From: Candidatus Doudnabacteria bacterium RIFCSPHIGHO2_01_48_18 | GTDB taxonomy: Bacteria > Patescibacteriota > Doudnabacteria > UBA920 > 2-01-FULL-46-14 | Direction: 5' to 3' | Length of the DNA stretch: 64,000 nt | NCBI GenBank assembly: GCA_001777515.1 | Contig: MFEF01000002.1 | Coordinates: 5,354 to 69,353 of the forward strand | Part shown: piece by piece, positions 15,761-28,517 of the stretch | Position numbering within the stretch: position 1 is the first letter of the stretch | How the letters are laid out: each line of letters opens with the position of its first letter | Made by a program: the position numbers and the translations under genes | The notes under the pieces: generated by a model | What the model was told of the DNA's origin: nothing | The model's database searches: none | The model's input: the letters and a program-made list of their open reading frames with translations, nothing else

Positions 15761-15790
15761 AACACCTCAACCGCCGGTTGAGGTGTTTTG
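15761..15790 (+). terminator. rho-independent terminator after rplM-rpsI
   Basis: CACCTCAAC (15763-15771) / GTTGAGGTG (15777-15785) followed by TTTTGTG. Confidence 0.65.
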
Positions 15791-15805
15791 TGCTATAATA
15801 CAGTC

Positions 15806-16093
15806 ATGCCCGAAGAAATTGAGAAAATTAAAGACCAAATAGTCCCGATTCTTAAAGAAGCCGGAGTTTTAAAGTCGTCCCTATTTGGCTCTGTGGTGAG
15901 AGGTGAGGCTAGACCAGATAGTGATGTGGATATTTTAATCGAATTTCCTAGAGATAAAGATATGTTTGACCTCATAGATTTGGAAGAAAAGCTAAAATCA
16001 AAATTGCGTAAAAAGGTGGATTTGATTACTTACCGCTCGATACACCACCTACTGCGCGACAATATCCTCAAAGAACAAGTTCGTATCCTATGA
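15806..16093 (+). CDS. MNT-type nucleotidyltransferase (antitoxin of an MNT/HepT toxin-antitoxin pair)
   Basis: LFGSVVRGEARPDSDVDILIEF is the minimal nucleotidyltransferase (GS...DxD) motif. An extended -10 TGCTATAAT (15791-15799) lies 6 nt upstream of ATG 15806, suggesting a leaderless mRNA. The ORF-track start at 15788 would overlap the terminator hairpin. Confidence 0.7.
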   Translation: MPEEIEKIKDQIVPILKEAGVLKSSLFGSVVRGEARPDSDVDILIEFPRDKDMFDLIDLEEKLKSKLRKKVDLITYRSIHHLLRDNILKEQVRIL

Positions 16094-16299
16094 GCAAAGA
16101 CCCGCAAATACTGCTCCAACATATCTTTGAATCAGTTGAAATTTTGCAATCTTATTTGACTGGTGTTGACGAGGAGCAGTTTTTGCATAATTTTAAAGAC
16201 CAGGACGCGGTAGAACGTGGAAGTTTCAATCCGTCCGTTAAATTTTTGCAAAGAGTGGCGACCGCCCTCGATGCAGAATTGCACATTTCGATTTCTTAA
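16090..16299 (+). pseudogene. HepT-like (DUF86) toxin gene, C-terminally truncated
   Basis: The N-terminus ILLQHIFESVEILQSYLTGVDEEQFLHNFKDQDAVERG matches the DUF86/HepT family, but the ORF ends at 69 aa. The catalytic Rx4HxY region is absent. The ORF overlaps MNT by 4 nt and stops 8 bp before the MITE-like element. Confidence 0.5.
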
Positions 16300-16307
16300 A
16301 CCTTTTT

Positions 16308-16407
16308 ATCCAGCACCTTCCAGAATACCCCGCAGCTTGCTGCGGGGATGAATGGCTCAATATAGCCTTCCTGCGGGGTGCAATACCCCGACAGGAAGGT
16401 GCTGGAT
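16308..16407. repeat. 100-bp nested-palindrome MITE/REP-like element, copy A
   Basis: 14-bp terminal inverted repeats ATCCAGCACCTTCC / GGAAGGTGCTGGAT. Internal palindromes CCCCGCAGCttgCTGCGGGG and CCTTCCTGCGGGG...CCCCGACAGGAAGG. Copy A is the exact reverse complement (100/100) of 26931..27030. Confidence 0.85.
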
Positions 16408-16448
16408 TTATTTCAGCGTAACCCCGCTTGATTTAAAGCAAATAAAAA

Positions 16449-22759: not shown

Positions 22760-23779
22760 ATGCATCGTCGCACTTTTTTTTTGATTTGTCAATTTCGCCA
22801 TAAACAGGTATTCTTAAGGCAGATTAAGCAGATTTTCGTGAAGGAAACAAAAAATTACTTTTTAATTTTGCTGATGATTGCCGCGTTTGCGGTTTTTAAT
22901 CCTTCGCCCGAGATCCCGGAAGGAAAGGTGGCTGGACAAATTGTTAGTGGAACTGAAAAATTTGCCGATTTTCCAGTAGTTCCTGATACACGGGTTATCT
23001 CGATTCCGGTGAATGCCAAGCCGGCTAAAGCTCCCGGTGTTTCCGCAAAAGCGGTGCTTATCAAAGATATTGAATCAGGCGTTGCTGTGTATGAAAAAAA
23101 TTCGGCTGAAAAACTGCCTATCGCGAGCCTGACAAAGCTGATGACGGCCCTGATTGTCGTAGAGAATGCCTCGCTCGACGATGAGGTGGAAATCAAAGCT
23201 TCTGACCTGCAAACGGCTCCGTATCGAATAAATTTTGCGGTCGGGGACAGGGTTGCAATCAAGGATCTGTTAACCGCCATGCTTGTGCCTTCGGCCAATG
23301 ACGCGGCATTGGCGCTTGCTAGGCACACTTTTGGCAGCAAAGAGGATTTTGTTAAAGCCATGAACAATAAAGCCCGGGGCTTGGGTATGGTTTCCACATC
23401 TTTTGCCAATCCGGTGGGTTTTGACAGTGCGTCTCATTATTCCACAGCCGCGGACATGTCACTCCTTGCGGAAGAGTTCATAAAACATACTGAGCTGCTT
23501 GATATCGTAAAACTAAAATCAGCTGACATCGCGTCGCTTTCTTCCTCAAGAAAACAGCGCGTGTACACAACTAATAAACTCTTGCTGGAACGAGATGACG
23601 TAGTGGGACTGAAAACTGGATACACCGTGGAAGCCAAAGGTAGCCTGATCACCTTAGTTGACAACGGTAATCCGGAGTCTCCGCTCAGATATTATTCCAT
23701 AATGCTGGGAAGCGACGATAGGGAAATGGAAACAAGAATGTTAATGAAATGGATTGAGGACAATTTCATATGGAGATGA
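22760..23779 (+). CDS. D-alanyl-D-alanine carboxypeptidase (peptidase S11, DacA-like) with N-terminal membrane anchor
   Basis: SxxK motif in AKAVLIKDIESGVAVYEKNSAEKLPIASLTKLMTALIV, plus SxN-like and KTG motifs (GLKTGYT). The start is uncertain: the ORF-track start 22640 overlaps trxA on the other strand, and the first ATG inside the unique region (22760) was chosen. Confidence 0.65.
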   Translation: MHRRTFFLICQFRHKQVFLRQIKQIFVKETKNYFLILLMIAAFAVFNPSPEIPEGKVAGQIVSGTEKFADFPVVPDTRVISIPVNAKPAKAPGVSAKAVLIKDIESGVAVYEKNSAEKLPIASLTKLMTALIVVENASLDDEVEIKASDLQTAPYRINFAVGDRVAIKDLLTAMLVPSANDAALALARHTFGSKEDFVKAMNNKARGLGMVSTSFANPVGFDSASHYSTAADMSLLAEEFIKHTELLDIVKLKSADIASLSSSRKQRVYTTNKLLLERDDVVGLKTGYTVEAKGSLITLVDNGNPESPLRYYSIMLGSDDREMETRMLMKWIEDNFIWR

Positions 23780-24783
23780 TGGGACAAAATTTGGCGGAGA
23801 TTTTCAAGCTAACGGCATTGTCGTTTATTTTGGCTATATTGTGGACGCCAGTTCTGACACACTACCTGTATAAGCATAAGCTGGTTAAGCAAATAAGGCA
23901 GCAGACCTGGGATGGGCAGCCTGCCAAGATTTTTCGCGAGATGCACGGTAAGAAGTGCGGCACTCCGACCATGGGCGGTTTGCTTATCTGGCTGACTGCG
24001 GCCGGCGTAACCTTATTTTTCAATCTATCTCGCGAGCAAACCTGGCTGCCACTATTCACGCTTGTTTCTGCTGGGATTTTGGGCATGATCGACGACATGC
24101 TGAATATACGCGGTTTTGTGAAAGGCCTTTCCGCCAAACTCAAATTTTTGTTTCAGTTTTTGATCGCGGGCCTCGGCGCATGGTGGTTTTACTATAAGCT
24201 GGAGTTTTCCGAGATTGGCATTCCGGGCGGGGCCAACATTGGCCTTCCCGAAACTCTCGATATTGGTTGGTTGTATATTCCGCTTTTTATCCTTACTGTT
24301 GTTTTTTTGACTAACGCCGTAAACATCACGGACGGACTCGACGGTCTGGCGGGGGGGACACTTGCGGCCAGCTTTGCGGCCGTCATGGGAATCGCGCTGG
24401 TACAAGGGCAGGTCGGCATCGCGGCTTTCGCCGGAACGATCGTTGGCGCTTTGCTTGCGTTTCTATGGTTCAATATTTATCCGGCCCGTTTTTTTATGGG
24501 GGATACCGGAGCCTTTGCCCTCGGCGCGACCCTGGCTGTCCTCGCGTTTTTAACAAATACTGTATTGCTTCTGCCCATCATTGGTTTTATTTTCGTCGTG
24601 GAGGCTTTTTCGACCCTCTTGCAATGGTTTTCAAAAAGGTATCTATCGCGCAAATTTTTGAAGATAGCGCCGCTGCATCATCATTTTGAAGCCCTGGGCT
24701 GGCCGGAAACCAAAGTCACTATGCGATTTTGGGTTATTTCCGCGGTTATGGCCACAATCGGAATGGTTATCGCATTTCTATGA
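23770..24783 (+). CDS. mraY: phospho-N-acetylmuramoyl-pentapeptide transferase
   Basis: TNAVNITDGLDGLAGG, the MraY/WecA signature. About 10 TM segments. 337 aa. Confidence 0.85.
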   Translation: MEMMGQNLAEIFKLTALSFILAILWTPVLTHYLYKHKLVKQIRQQTWDGQPAKIFREMHGKKCGTPTMGGLLIWLTAAGVTLFFNLSREQTWLPLFTLVSAGILGMIDDMLNIRGFVKGLSAKLKFLFQFLIAGLGAWWFYYKLEFSEIGIPGGANIGLPETLDIGWLYIPLFILTVVFLTNAVNITDGLDGLAGGTLAASFAAVMGIALVQGQVGIAAFAGTIVGALLAFLWFNIYPARFFMGDTGAFALGATLAVLAFLTNTVLLLPIIGFIFVVEAFSTLLQWFSKRYLSRKFLKIAPLHHHFEALGWPETKVTMRFWVISAVMATIGMVIAFL

Positions 24784-26354
24784 CATTTGATTTACTTATA
24801 AAAAACGGAACCGTGCTCGATGGCGCAAGCAACCAGGCTTACAAGGCTGACATTGGCATCAATGGAAATTTGATCCGCGTTGTTGGCAATCTTCGGGGAG
24901 CTAGCGCCGGACAGATTATCGACGCGTCGGGTCTGTTTGTCGCGCCTGGATTTATAGATATTCAGAATCACTCTGATTCGTACCTGACCTTGCTTGAGAT
25001 CCCGTCCATGGAAAGTCTGGTTACGCAAGGCATAACAACGATTCTGGTAGGCCATTGCGGCACCTCCCTTGCGCCGCTTTCTACCCCGGAAGCCCTGAAA
25101 TCGATTCAAAAATGGCGGAGCCTTGCCGGAGCAAATGTTAACTGGCAGACTTTCGAGGAATATCTTGGAACCTTGAAGAATTATCCTCTGGGTGTAAACG
25201 TGACAAGCCTCGTGGGGCATGCCACAGTACGGCGCGGTTTGCTTTCTGATCAAATCAGGGCCGCGACGCCGGAAGAAATATTAATAATCGAAAAACAGAT
25301 TGCGGATAGCTTTGAAGCCGGCGCGAAAGGTGTTTCTCTGGGCCTAGTTTACGCACATGAGGCCAATTCGTCGGAAGAGGAACTGCTGTCAGTGGCCAAA
25401 ATGGTCGCGTCCAACGAAAAAATGCTCAGCGTTCATTTGCGGTCTGAAGGCGGCCATGTGGTGGAAGCGCTGGAAGAAGTCATAGGTCTCGCGGAGAAAT
25501 CCGGGTGCGATCTCAAAATTTCTCATTTCAAAATCCGGGGGAGTCAAAACTACGGTTACTTGGACGAGGCACTGTCAGTGATTGACCGGGCTTACCAACG
25601 CGGTGTCAGCGTTTTTTTTGATGTTTATCCCTACACCACCTCCTGGACAGTGCTTTATACATATCTGCCGAAATGGGCTTATGAAGGCGGCAAAAAATCG
25701 ATACTGCAAAACATCAAGGAACCGTCATCAAGAAAAAAGATCATAGACCATCTTTCAAGACAGGAAACAAACTTGGGTAGCGTTTTTATAGCTACTTCCG
25801 AAACCAATCCAGGACTGACCGGCCGAACCCTCTCGCAAATTGCCGCAAATCAAGAGGTTACGGCTCAAGAAGCGCTTCTTAATGTTCTTGAAGCGACAGC
25901 AACGCACGCGATCGTTTTTGACCGAAATCTTTCAGAAAGCGTTATGCTCGCGCTTCTCAAGCATCCGCTTGGCGTGATTGGCACGGACGGCGCTGGTTAT
26001 GATTTTTCATTTTCCCCAACTCACGGACTAGTGCACCCCAGATGTTTTGGAACCATGCCGAGATTTTTGTCACTGATCAGGGAAAAAAATCTCATGTCGT
26101 GGCCGGAGGCCATCAAAAAAATTACTTCCAGGCCAGCGGAAAAAATGAAACTAAAAAACCGAGGCAGGCTTGCCGCGGGCCTAGTAGCTGACGTGGTTGT
26201 TTTTGATCCCCATACGGTGGGCAGTCGAGCAACCTATGAAAATCCTTATCAGCAGGCGGACGGAATAAGCTATGTTGTTATAAATGGCAAGATAAGTTTT
26301 GCTGTTAGAGAGCCAGCCCAGAGGGTTACAGCAGGCCAGCTTTTGCTCAATTGA
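24780..26354 (+). CDS. N-acyl-D-amino-acid deacylase (D-aminoacylase) family amidohydrolase
   Basis: MTFDLLIKNGTVLDG ... LFVAPGFIDIQNHSD (metal-binding H-x-H region of the amidohydrolase fold). ATG 24780 overlaps the mraY stop (ATGA). Confidence 0.7.
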   Translation: MTFDLLIKNGTVLDGASNQAYKADIGINGNLIRVVGNLRGASAGQIIDASGLFVAPGFIDIQNHSDSYLTLLEIPSMESLVTQGITTILVGHCGTSLAPLSTPEALKSIQKWRSLAGANVNWQTFEEYLGTLKNYPLGVNVTSLVGHATVRRGLLSDQIRAATPEEILIIEKQIADSFEAGAKGVSLGLVYAHEANSSEEELLSVAKMVASNEKMLSVHLRSEGGHVVEALEEVIGLAEKSGCDLKISHFKIRGSQNYGYLDEALSVIDRAYQRGVSVFFDVYPYTTSWTVLYTYLPKWAYEGGKKSILQNIKEPSSRKKIIDHLSRQETNLGSVFIATSETNPGLTGRTLSQIAANQEVTAQEALLNVLEATATHAIVFDRNLSESVMLALLKHPLGVIGTDGAGYDFSFSPTHGLVHPRCFGTMPRFLSLIREKNLMSWPEAIKKITSRPAEKMKLKNRGRLAAGLVADVVVFDPHTVGSRATYENPYQQADGISYVVINGKISFAVREPAQRVTAGQLLLN

Positions 26355-26372
26355 TTTTGTGCTAATTTGCCA

Positions 26373-26404
26373 AAAACAGTCCCGGCAATTCGGGACTGTT
26401 TGTT
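26373..26404 (+). terminator. rho-independent terminator after the D-aminoacylase gene
   Basis: AACAGTCCCG (26375-26384) gcaatt CGGGACTGTT (26391-26400) followed by TGTT. Confidence 0.6.
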
Positions 26405-26449
26405 ATACTGTCAGATGCGTTGAATATCTGATCCAGGCACACTTTATCT

Positions 26450-26704
26450 ATGAATGAAGTGCTGCAATCCGAAGTGTTCTTTTTCATAACCTCTATTGCC
26501 GTCATAGTGCTGACGGGTCTTGCGGTGGGAGTTTTGGTGTACTTTATTTCCGTTGTCAAGGATCTGAAGCATGTTGCCAGAGTAGCGCGCAGAGAAGCTG
26601 ATCATATCGCTTCTGATTTGGCGGATTTTCGGGCAGAGAATCATTTGCCGAATTTTTTGAAAAAAATTTTCAACCGCAGGCACAAGATTAAAATTAAACA
26701 TTAA
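26450..26704 (+). CDS. hypothetical small membrane protein (84 aa, one TM)
   Basis: The TM segment is FFFITSIAVIVLTGLAVGVLVYFISVV. The protein has a basic C-terminus. It lies between the terminator and the next small ORF. Confidence 0.4.
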   Translation: MNEVLQSEVFFFITSIAVIVLTGLAVGVLVYFISVVKDLKHVARVARREADHIASDLADFRAENHLPNFLKKIFNRRHKIKIKH

Positions 26705-26714
26705 GAAAAACAAC

Positions 26715-26930
26715 GTGACATTGAGTACTAGAGCAAAGGTAGGAATATCTCTTTCCGCGATCGCCGCGGCGATTGGCGGCAGAGACGGAGCGGCGTCGGC
26801 TTATCAGAAGCTGCGCGACAGGGACCGGATCGAAACAGACGATTTGATACGAGACCTTCGCGGATATTGGACGGTATTGAAGGGAAAATATGGTAATAAA
26901 CCCAAAAAGCGGTCCAAATCAAAAAAATAA
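26715..26930 (+). CDS. hypothetical small protein (71 aa) with lysine-rich C-terminus
   Basis: The stop codon TAA (26928-26930) directly abuts copy B of the palindromic element. No family recognised. Confidence 0.35.
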   Translation: MTLSTRAKVGISLSAIAAAIGGRDGAASAYQKLRDRDRIETDDLIRDLRGYWTVLKGKYGNKPKKRSKSKK

Positions 26931-27030
26931 ATCCAGCACCTTCCTGTCGGGGTATTGCACCCCGCAGGAAGGCTATATTGAGCCATTCATCCCCGCAGCA
27001 AGCTGCGGGGTATTCTGGAAGGTGCTGGAT
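26931..27030. repeat. 100-bp nested-palindrome MITE/REP-like element, copy B (inverted relative to copy A)
   Basis: It is the exact reverse complement of 16308..16407. Checked base by base: 100/100. Confidence 0.85.
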
Positions 27031-27188
27031 AAATTTCTGGTAGGAACTTCGGGATGGCAGTACAAAGACTGAATGACGCAAAAGCGGCTGCCAGCAAAAA
27101 CGCTCGTTATCTGAAGCATTTGTTGGCCCGCCCGCCATCGCAAGCTTGAAGCTTGGCTCGGTGGCTCGCGGCGGGTATAATTTGATTT

Positions 27189-28517
27189 ATGACACTAGGC
27201 GATCTAAAAACCGGCAAAGTTGCTGTTTTAGGCATGGGTGTAAATCACGAGGCGCTGGCCAAATATCTGCAAAAACAAGGGGTCAGCTTTCAGGTGATTG
27301 ACGGCTGGAAAACAGATGCAGAGCTCGCAGAGCGTTTGTCGGGCTTTGATATTATTTTTCGGACGCCAGGTGTGCCTTTTTTTTCGAAATCAATACAAAC
27401 CCTGAAGCGGAGGGGGGCGAAGATCTACAGTCAGACCAAGCTTTTTTTTGATTTGTGCCAGGCGCCGATTATCGGTGTCACCGGAACAAAAGGCAAAGGC
27501 ACAACTTCGACCTTAATTTTTAAGATTCTGGAGGCGGCCGCCCTTCGACAAGCTCATGGCCGCAAGGTGTACCTTGCGGGAAATATCGGACGAGATCCAT
27601 TCGAGTTTATTGATAAGCTGACTCCAAACGATTTTGTCATTCTTGAACTCTCCAGCTTTCAACTCCAAGATCTCCATAAAAGTCCCCACATTGCTGTTGT
27701 ATTGAAAATAACTCCGGAACATCTCGATCACCATCAAGACCTCGCTGAATATATTGAAGCAAAAACCTCGATCGTTAGATTCCAATCCGCGTCAGATTTC
27801 GCGGTATTGAGCTATGATTCAGAAAGCACTCGGACATTCGCCGGTAAAACAAAGGCGCGGATTGTTTGGAATTCGATCAAGCAAGAAGTAAAACCCGGAT
27901 GCTACGCTACAGATCGGAAAATTTTTTTGAACGGTGAAATTGTGGCGAAAACAGCAGAAGTCGCCCTGCTGGGAAGGTTTAACCTAGAAAACGTCACCGC
28001 GGCGATAGCGGCTGCCGCAGCCGCAGGTGTGACTGATGGTACAACAATCAAGAAAGCGATTTCCGAGTTCCGGGGATTGCCACATCGTTTAGAATTTATT
28101 GCTGAAATTGGGAAGGTAAAATTTTACAATGATTCTTTTGCCACCACACCCGAAACCACGGTTGCCGCGTTGACAGCTTTTGCAGATCCTATAGTTTTGA
28201 TCGCTGGCGGATCAGAAAAAAAATCTGACTATGCAGAGCTTGGCAAGAAAATCGCGGAATCAAAGGTCAAGACTCTTATCGCCATCGGCGTGACCGGGCC
28301 GAAGATCGCAAAGCTTGCCAGAGACGCGGGTTTTGCCGGAAAAATATTTGATACTGGACTCAATGACATGGAACAGATAATTGCCAAGGCCAACGAAGCC
28401 GCAGATCCCGGAGATGTGGTTTTGCTTTCACCAGCCTCGGCAAGCTTTGACATGTTTGACAATTATAAACAGCGGGGCGAGCTTTTTAGTAAATTCGTAT
28501 CAAAACTTGCGAAATAA
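27189..28517 (+). CDS. murD: UDP-N-acetylmuramoylalanine--D-glutamate ligase
   Basis: N-terminal Rossmann KVAVLGMGVNHEALAKYL and Mur ligase P-loop GVTGTKGKGTTSTLI. It is followed by a SEDS gene as in dcw clusters. TATAAT lies 7 nt before the ATG. Confidence 0.7.
   Translation: MTLGDLKTGKVAVLGMGVNHEALAKYLQKQGVSFQVIDGWKTDAELAERLSGFDIIFRTPGVPFFSKSIQTLKRRGAKIYSQTKLFFDLCQAPIIGVTGTKGKGTTSTLIFKILEAAALRQAHGRKVYLAGNIGRDPFEFIDKLTPNDFVILELSSFQLQDLHKSPHIAVVLKITPEHLDHHQDLAEYIEAKTSIVRFQSASDFAVLSYDSESTRTFAGKTKARIVWNSIKQEVKPGCYATDRKIFLNGEIVAKTAEVALLGRFNLENVTAAIAAAAAAGVTDGTTIKKAISEFRGLPHRLEFIAEIGKVKFYNDSFATTPETTVAALTAFADPIVLIAGGSEKKSDYAELGKKIAESKVKTLIAIGVTGPKIAKLARDAGFAGKIFDTGLNDMEQIIAKANEAADPGDVVLLSPASASFDMFDNYKQRGELFSKFVSKLAK

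Follow-up and report, generated by a model that had tools for sequence, protein, structure and literature searches.

A palindromic repeat of 100 nucleotides (nt) that occurs twice, in opposite orientations, in a 64,000-nt stretch of Candidatus Doudnabacteria bacterium RIFCSPHIGHO2_01_48_18 (assembly GCA_001777515.1, contig MFEF01000002.1, positions 5,354 to 69,353; hereafter the window) is very probably a non-autonomous mobile DNA element. [quoted passage not shown] The first-pass annotation of the window had left its nature open between a non-autonomous mobile element, a terminator or RNA-stability element resembling repetitive extragenic palindromes (REPs), and a small structured non-coding RNA (ncRNA). 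The first of these readings is carried by the multiplicity of the repeat at unrelated sites and in unrelated lineages, its near-invariant termini, the existence of filled and empty sites, its nesting with other repeats and the presence of copies inside open reading frames (ORFs). Such an element would depend in trans on an enzyme whose gene lies outside it. The action of this enzyme leaves near-invariant termini beside TTTAT(T), almost always in one orientation. Once inserted, copies decay, suffer slippage losses between direct repeats, are hit by other hairpin repeats and, within genes, are tolerated in frame.

The two window copies (Table 1) are exact reverse complements of each other, as the first-pass annotation had stated, and the exact inverted match actually reaches 109 nt (arms 16305-16413 and 26925-27033), comprising the 100-nt core and conserved flanks. 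These 3 + 6 additional identical bases are explained by the conserved target motif of the family and do not imply a larger duplication. The 14-bp terminal inverted repeat reported at the same time, ATCCAGCACCTTCC, is found four times in the window versus 0.38 expected by chance, and neither blastn nor nhmmer reveals a third copy, full or degenerate, in the 64 kb. The pair is not an assembly artefact, a doubt raised early on, as the element is present at both loci in independent NCBI, ENA, JGI and Logan assemblies of the window's population; GCA_001777615.1 and near-identical metagenome-assembled genomes (MAGs) derive from this same Rifle-aquifer Candidatus Doudnabacteria population. Many contigs end inside the element, which is what a multi-copy repeat should cause.

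The unit measures ~98 nt (TCCAGCACCTTCC ... GGAAGGTGCTGGA) and consists of perfect 13-14-bp terminal inverted repeats around three short hairpins. Folding of the 109-mer bears out the multi-stem structure initially proposed: both strands give a 14-bp closing stem and three hairpins, whether they are folded as RNA (-60.6 kcal/mol, z = -8.0) or as DNA (-34.8 kcal/mol, z = -8.3), and 0 of 200 shuffled sequences folds as well, whichever strand is considered. The unit has three open frames out of six, none with a start codon or a family match, and there is no gene inside. The interior contains direct repeats (AATACCCCG.CAG twice and CTGCGGGG twice) supplied by hairpins a and b; recurrent forms of 69 and 41 nt, present at many sites, are accounted for by deletions between them. 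Over 29 aligned copies, with 88-105 nt between the 12-nt termini, the termini are invariant while the mean column identity of the interior is 69 %. Twelve of the 14 terminal bases were demanded by the scan pattern used to find the copies, yet the outer AT, which was not demanded, is likewise invariant. In a set ascertained through the A end only, the terminus of the B end still shows 96 % mean identity compared to 80 % for the interior, its sole common change affecting the innermost base.

The element is by no means confined to the two places in which it was first noticed. Searching one genome per species for both 12-nt termini at a spacing of 55-85 nt yielded 28 exact-terminus loci in 12 assemblies, of which 27 loci in 11 assemblies have the family interior. 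By their labels, the 12 assemblies belong to Doudnabacteria (three MAGs), Falkowbacteria, Magasanikbacteria and Saccharibacteria, to an unclassified Patescibacterium and, in two cases, to Desulfobacterota, with the largest numbers of exact-terminus copies per MAG in Magasanikbacteria (7) and Falkowbacteria (6). Genomes that carry the element include the Doudnabacteria MAGs GCA_001777615.1, GCA_001777695.1, GCA_001780065.1 and RIFCSPHIGHO2_02_FULL_48_21, Magasanikbacteria RIFOXYC2_FULL_40_16 and Falkowbacteria JACRDY01. When metagenomes were scanned with a 22-mer of the A end, at least 111 stretches were recovered, mostly from groundwater (Rifle, Hainich), and the matches listed comprise 80 independent sites, that is, copies with distinct flanks. 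A 100-mer identical to that of the window is present at no fewer than 29 of these 80 sites, all other than the window's own; in three further 100-mers among the matches listed, the number of differing positions is one, two and eight. So many identical copies at distinct sites point to a recent burst from a master copy. Of the two origins first suggested for the perfect identity of the window copies, recent duplication thus stands and gene conversion is not needed. Copies can be locally dense, with up to four on an 18-kb contig and at least five on a contig of 90.7 kb; the terminus-pair pattern has 0 matches in the phage contigs of IMG/VR.

Two observations concern the limits of the family. Full-length copies lie on contigs of a Thermodesulfobacteriota MAG (L017, with 53 % GC and a TRAP-transporter-like gene next to the copy) and of a Syntrophaceae MAG (L024), reflecting either horizontal spread beyond the CPR or mis-binning. 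In Saccharibacteria JARIHL01 (L015, 5900-6030), a 92-nt palindrome resembles the family in nothing but its 12-nt termini, CCAGCACCTTCC/GGAAGGTGCTGG: its flanks are CG, its interior differs and its outer inverted repeat continues for ~18 nt more. It was left out of the family and is probably unrelated or a distant relative.

When copies are oriented by their interior, TTT flanks the A side and TTATT the B side. At the 80 listed sites, TTT is found in 77-80 cases and TTATT in 68-79, and nothing is conserved further out; the arrangement is standard at 75 sites, has the interior flipped at 2 and is of another kind at 3 (binomial p = 4e-20 versus random orientation). What insertion does to this motif can be read from two pairs of filled and empty sites. 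Two type IV pilin-like paralogues at locus L099 differ by exactly 102 nt; on the left side of the insertion they are identical over ~45 nt, and on its right side over the whole of the 68 nt compared. The empty site reads ...AGAAT TTTATT ATGAC... and the filled one ...AGAAT TTTA[TCCAGC...GCTGGA]TTTA TT ATGAC.... A paralogue pair at L064 provides the same comparison for the 69-nt form, with TTTATA as target. Empty sites thus have a single TTTAT(T/A), filled sites have TTTA(T) on both sides, and the difference in length is that of the element + 4. It follows that TTTAT(T) pre-exists in the target and that insertion adds the ~98-nt unit plus TTTA(T). Since nearly all targets are identical, the duplication is mostly indistinguishable from a copy of the motif borne by the element. 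One copy (L053, ~2340-2470) is nevertheless bordered on both sides by the variant TTCAT, a single case that favours a true staggered-cut target duplication. A further candidate pair of filled and empty sites, L109 versus L138 for a 36-nt hairpin, was not relied on, as the flanks diverge right past the site.

Most copies are intergenic and lie in divergent, convergent or tandem regions in either orientation; the gene contexts are away/away (18), away/toward (14), toward/away (13) and toward/toward (10), without orientation preference. Others have entered genes. The full unit and its duplication add 102 nt, i.e., 34 codons, and repeated in-frame insertion into unrelated protein genes, a trait of RPEs, is found for UvrC, an integrase and GmrSD_N/HNH and PMT_2 proteins. 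In UvrC of Doudnabacteria RIFCSPHIGHO2_02_FULL_48_21, the in-frame insertion is missing in 11 homologues, a comparison with the empty state at the protein level only (the nearest homologue is 72 % identical); in the same protein, one Pfam UvrC_RNaseH_dom stretch covers residues 386-570 for a profile of 159 positions. In the Xer-like integrase, an in-frame insertion of 35 codons (105 nt) corresponds to 38 gap columns relative to a homologue of 44 % identity. In the filled pilin paralogue of L099, the copy is read in a frame that contains a stop, and the gene is split. A peptide word-index search for in-frame copies gauges their frequency poorly, since UvrC escaped it and most of the 31 proteins that it returned were short ORFs. 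The linker of CPR UvrC proteins between '...RRF' and 'WP.PDL' (alignment columns ~517-570, homologues P0001-P0058) contains low-complexity inserts that vary between homologues; P0004, for instance, has 'RGAKQRSNLKNEIATQPVAARND' and P0009 has 'PSPGDGEGERERS'. This linker has the appearance of a hotspot for the insertion and translation of other repeat families as well.

Several observations weigh against a mobile element or at least sit uneasily with it. About 1.04 Mb of DNA flanking the copies contains neither long-range pairs of the termini nor a recurrent transposase among the neighbouring ORFs, and tblastn with IS200/IS605 TnpA or RAYT gives no match at E<=1 in the same 1.04 Mb, with approximate sequences of E. 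coli RAYT and IS608 TnpA as queries. Both filled/empty pairs are paralogues and not alleles. Polymorphism of the insertion sites, envisaged by the first-pass annotation, was not seen among contigs of the window's own population, where every contig is either occupied or broken in the repeat. The strict orientation at an asymmetric target is not expected under a classical symmetric mechanism based on DDE transposases and terminal inverted repeats, and the 36-41-nt members leave very little length for synapsis of double-stranded DNA. Finally, there may be structural constraint beyond the termini. Across the 29 copies, the six-pair helix of hairpin a is paired in 78 % and the two-pair helix in 73 % of cells; for the internal hairpins as a whole the values are 73-82 %, above both controls, with some double or compensatory changes and many broken cells. 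The test used the structure of the window copy, which biases these counts toward that structure, and RNAalifold on the alignment predicts the closing stem only. An apparent recurrent 'family' of neighbouring proteins turned out to be merely the translated element.

Among the known systems closest to the family are the bacterial MITEs, which are small, non-coding and dispersed, with terminal inverted repeats, short AT-rich target duplications and a foldable transcript (PMC10969869, PMC3184786). The family has their small size and lack of coding capacity, perfect terminal inverted repeats, dispersal over many non-homologous sites and, from the filled/empty pairs and L053, a target-site duplication. 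What is missing is a parent insertion sequence with the same termini, none being present within the ~1.04 Mb around copies, a result that does not prove its absence elsewhere. Several accepted MITE families are likewise without a known parent. Correia/NEMIS of Neisseria, RUP of pneumococcus and ERIC are bacterial MITEs with deletion subtypes, and the CPR family is similar to them in its small size, inverted termini, dispersal and deletion forms. MITEs of known mechanics duplicate a symmetric target (TA for Correia) and insert in either orientation. In contrast, the CPR family is oriented 75:2 at an asymmetric pentanucleotide, and its termini are identical across several phylum-level CPR lineages.

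The likeness to RPEs lies in the behaviour of the copies. RPEs are palindromic repeats of ~100-150 bp in a reduced genome, which occur between genes as well as in frame within unrelated genes, where they are translated, and whose transposase is not known (PMC10969869). The CPR family similarly has in-frame copies in uvrC, the integrase and other ORFs, three open frames and an increment of 102 nt per insertion. Unlike RPEs, it resides in another host phylum, has sharp 13-14-bp inverted termini and an oriented TTTAT(T) target, and is mostly intergenic. By this comparison of descriptions its behaviour may be termed RPE-like; membership of the RPEs is not claimed. A literature search found no account of the terminus sequence in a bacterial context, nor of MITEs in the CPR.

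As to the enzyme that would mobilise the element, we infer that a DDE-type transposase and an enzyme specific for site or strand (HUH transposase or tyrosine recombinase) have equal claims, neither reaching an even chance, and that a lesser share falls to some other kind of enzyme. According to the first possibility, the repeat would be a classical MITE that arose by deletion from an insertion sequence bearing these 13-14-bp inverted repeats and is moved by double-stranded cut-and-paste with a 4-5-bp staggered cut that duplicates TTTA(T). The perfect and highly conserved terminal inverted repeats are consistent with this, as are TTTAT being present once in empty and twice in filled sites, the TTCAT on both sides of one copy, which is expected of a true duplication, and a size and nesting typical of bacterial MITEs (PMC10969869). 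The same mechanism accounts poorly for the 75:2 bias of orientation at TTTAT(T) given that both termini are identical, for the 36-41-nt members and for the lack of a parent insertion sequence in the ~1.04 Mb.

The competing possibility, of equal weight, is that the repeat is related to REPs, to palindrome-associated transposable elements (PATEs) or to att sites. It would then be acted upon by an enzyme recognising one site and one strand, either a HUH single-strand transposase that cuts at TTTAT, next to one strand's terminal stem, or a tyrosine recombinase using a core like those of lox or dif. The near-fixed orientation with respect to TTTAT(T) at 75 of the 80 listed sites argues for such an enzyme, and so do the extreme hairpin potential of both strands, the 36-41-nt members and the tiny hairpins that have only TTTAT-CCNGCACC termini in common. 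Joining the ends, GGAAGGTGCTGGA-TTTAT-CCAGCACCTTCC, would place an asymmetric spacer between inverted arms of 13 bp, the layout of lox or dif sites, and a circular or excised intermediate would show the end-to-end junction ...GGTGCTGGA TTTAT CCAGCACC.... However, the TTCAT/TTCAT copy is predicted by neither the HUH nor the recombinase mechanism.

The individual systems on which this possibility draws each match the family in part. REPs are palindromes of 20-40 nt with an unpaired GTAG or CGTC tag that sometimes lie inside replication or repair genes (PMC3733652), and for REP/REPIN sequences mobilisation in trans has been proposed, through a single-copy RAYT whose gene is flanked by the repeats (PMC3733652, PMC2817692). 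The family, like REPs, is a hairpin with a tag at the foot of the stem, and its 36-41-nt members, with TTTAT as tag, are REP-sized. Nevertheless, the GTAG or CGTC tag is absent and replaced by TTT...TTATT, the full element is no REP doublet but one 100-nt unit whose inverted termini are perfect, and no Y1/RAYT or IS200-like gene was found near any copy in the 1.04 Mb. PATEs derived from IS200/IS605 insert in a fixed orientation beside a specific tetra- or pentanucleotide in a hairpin-dependent manner, much as the family is oriented beside TTTAT (75 standard versus 2 flipped among the 80 listed sites). The ends of IS200/IS605 are not inverted repeats of each other and no target is duplicated, whereas the family has perfect 14-bp inverted termini and the copy bordered by TTCAT on both sides. 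The attC sites, finally, are imperfect palindromes of 57-141 bp that serve as folded single strands for integron-type tyrosine recombinases. The point of likeness is a XerA/integron-integrase-like gene that abuts copies in two MAGs; unlike attC, the termini ATCCAGC...GCTGGAT lack RYYYAAC/GTTRRRY core sites, there are neither one-orientation cassette arrays nor an intI-attI platform, and copies are scattered in both orientations, mostly without a nearby integrase.

That integrase gene, which scores 217.5 bits against an NCBIfam cut-off of 220, lies between two copies in a Falkowbacteria MAG (L011, 240-1455); in a Magasanikbacteria MAG (L018, 3591-4648) a gene of the same type is preceded by one copy and interrupted in frame by another in its N-terminal domain. 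Although this arrangement speaks for a tyrosine recombinase, three homologous integrase loci from other genomes, themselves not known carriers, are devoid of the element, and at more than 100 metagenome loci no integrase adjoins a copy, a single distant integrase fragment being seen among the matches listed. The Xer/IntI-like integrase is thus unsupported as a partner. Taken together, the family has the generic features of a MITE apart from a known parent insertion sequence and fails the tests for REP/RAYT, IS200/IS605, attC, terminator and Rfam families.

The same metagenomes contain other small hairpins that have only the ends TTTAT-CC(A/C)GCACC...GGTGC(T/G)GG-ATTTA in common with the family. 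Nests of hairpin repeats with related ends, inserted into each other and into members of the family, are seen at L046 (100-330), L109 (960-1380) and L101 (613-810); they include TTTATCCCGCACCTTT...AAAGGTGCGGGATTTAT, TAAATCAAGCACCC...GGGTGCGTGATAAA and a 38-nt repeat TTTATCCAGCACCAC...GTGGTGCTGGATTTA. A tentative extension is that the element and the tiny hairpins with TTTAT-CCNGCACC...GGTGCNGG-ATTTAT ends could form a CPR-wide 'tagged hairpin' mobile superfamily, moved as folded single strands or via a lox-like junction of the ends by a site- and orientation-specific enzyme, be it a HUH transposase or a Xer/integron-type tyrosine recombinase. If true, the element would not be a classical DDE MITE; it would belong to a system similar to REP/RAYT or attC, at work in the streamlined genomes of episymbionts.

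Conservation for a function in cis or as RNA, i.e., as an intrinsic terminator, an mRNA-stability hairpin or a small structured ncRNA, is very improbable. The very stable fold, the 73-82 % pairing with some compensatory changes, a T-rich run after the closing stem in the A->B direction and the location of both window copies after stop codons could all be taken in its favour. But a terminator or RNA stabiliser should hold a fixed position and orientation downstream of genes, and the copies occupy all four classes of gene context without preference, lie inside ORFs and, in the window, are oppositely oriented with respect to transcription. The terminator scan passes over the element and calls a terminator-like site downstream of copy 1. 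Rfam offers no match to the element at its gathering threshold or at E<=10, where hits are at chance level only; with Rfam 15 at the gathering threshold, the whole 64 kb gives 0 matches, tRNA included. The stop-codon adjacency noted at first, 8 nt and 0 nt after stops on the + strand, is accurate and follows from the target motif, since TTTATT on the other strand reads AATAAA, which contains TAA. Six of the 29 copies of the genome set and window, including window copy 2, lie within one base of a stop codon. The terminator, RNA-stability and ncRNA readings of the first-pass annotation are therefore not upheld.

Still more doubtful is a 10.7-kb composite transposon, or an invertible segment, bounded by the inverted pair: a perfect 109-nt inverted repeat 10.5 kb apart invites the idea, but the enclosed housekeeping genes (asparaginase-like, PolX, LOG, CorA, thioredoxin, carboxypeptidase, mraY and amidohydrolase) are co-oriented with their surroundings, the GC skew is unbroken and the element is found singly at dozens of unrelated sites. 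One junction might seem to suit an inversion. On ENA contig k141_2261326 (L040, 623-797), the HepT ORF and the element, i.e., the left flank of copy 1, are joined to a different right flank; as this matches neither window flank, it is not an inversion junction; the population may contain a third copy or a recombinant, or the contig may be a chimera assembled across the repeat. The non-autonomous mobile element being retained as the explanation, the two window copies are independent insertions of a recently or currently active master copy at the AT-rich ends of two transcription units.

Table 1. Features of the two element copies in the window (positions are those of the window)
Feature	Position	Strand	Remark
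Element copy 1, 100 nt, A->B	16308..16407	+	In the 330-nt spacer from the HepT-like remnant ORF to the asparaginase-like gene
Copy 1, left terminal inverted repeat ATCCAGCACCTTCC	16308..16321	+	Invariant in 29 aligned copies
Copy 1, right terminal inverted repeat GGAAGGTGCTGGAT	16394..16407	+	B-side terminus
Copy 1, left duplicated target TTTAT	16305..16309	+	Last two bases overlap the 14-bp terminus; from flank counts and filled/empty pairs
Copy 1, right duplicated target TTTAT and conserved T of the TTTATT motif	16407..16412	+	
Copy 1, internal hairpin a, CCCCGCAG-CTTG-CTGCGGGG	16328..16347	+	Fold; pairing across 29 copies
Copy 1, internal hairpin m (GAA.GGCU...AGCC UUC)	16350..16370	+	Most variable portion
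Copy 1, internal hairpin b, TGCGGGGTG-CAA-TACCCCG.CA	16372..16393	+	Fold
Element copy 2, 100 nt, A->B on the - strand	26931..27030	-	Between the 71-aa ORF and murD
Copy 2, B-side duplicated target, ATAAA on + (TTTAT on the element strand)	26927..26931	-	
Copy 2, A-side duplicated target, ATAAA on + (TTTAT on the element strand)	27029..27033	-	
Outer ends bounding the element, TCCAGCACC...GGTGCTGGA			

Copy 1 begins 8 nt past the stop of a 69-aa HepT-like ORF (16090-16299), in a spacer that follows a ribosomal-protein/MNT-HepT unit, and other terminator-like hairpins and a promoter-like site lie downstream of it. In the MNT/HepT toxin-antitoxin pair itself (15788-16299), which is degenerate, the 101-aa MNT nucleotidyltransferase is intact; in the HepT-like ORF, residues 13-43 alone match the first 32 of 120 profile positions. 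The C-terminal tail of this ORF, GSFNPSVKFLQRVATALDAELHISIS, presumably resembles the end of a helix-turn-helix protein of the XRE type, which suggests a rearrangement right beside copy 1.

Copy 2 begins immediately past the stop of a 71-aa ORF (26715-26930) and lies between this small ORF and a promoter-like site of murD; position 26926 and the B-side ATAAA together form AATAAA, which holds the TAA stop (26928-26930) of the ORF. While mraY and murD are usually neighbours, the cell-wall cluster of the window (23770-28517) is interrupted between them by an amidohydrolase (D-aminoacylase-like) gene of 524-541 aa, two ORFs of 84 and 71 aa, neither of which has a family match, and copy 2.

CPR genomes are about 1 Mb in size and are usually called streamlined. 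Despite this, the family locally reaches one copy per 4.5 kb and has undergone a very recent burst. There are practical consequences, as metagenome assemblies fragment and contigs end inside the element, spurious 'hypothetical proteins' and extended ORFs are seeded by it, and 34-35 residues are added to real proteins such as UvrC. How symmetric termini go together with insertion in a strict orientation at a pentanucleotide that is asymmetric poses a mechanistic puzzle, which leaves scope for a less ordinary mechanism. Moreover, the termini are identical across several CPR lineages of phylum rank, and possibly in Desulfobacterota living alongside them; this indicates horizontal spread, and the element would on this account be a marker of DNA exchange in groundwater communities.

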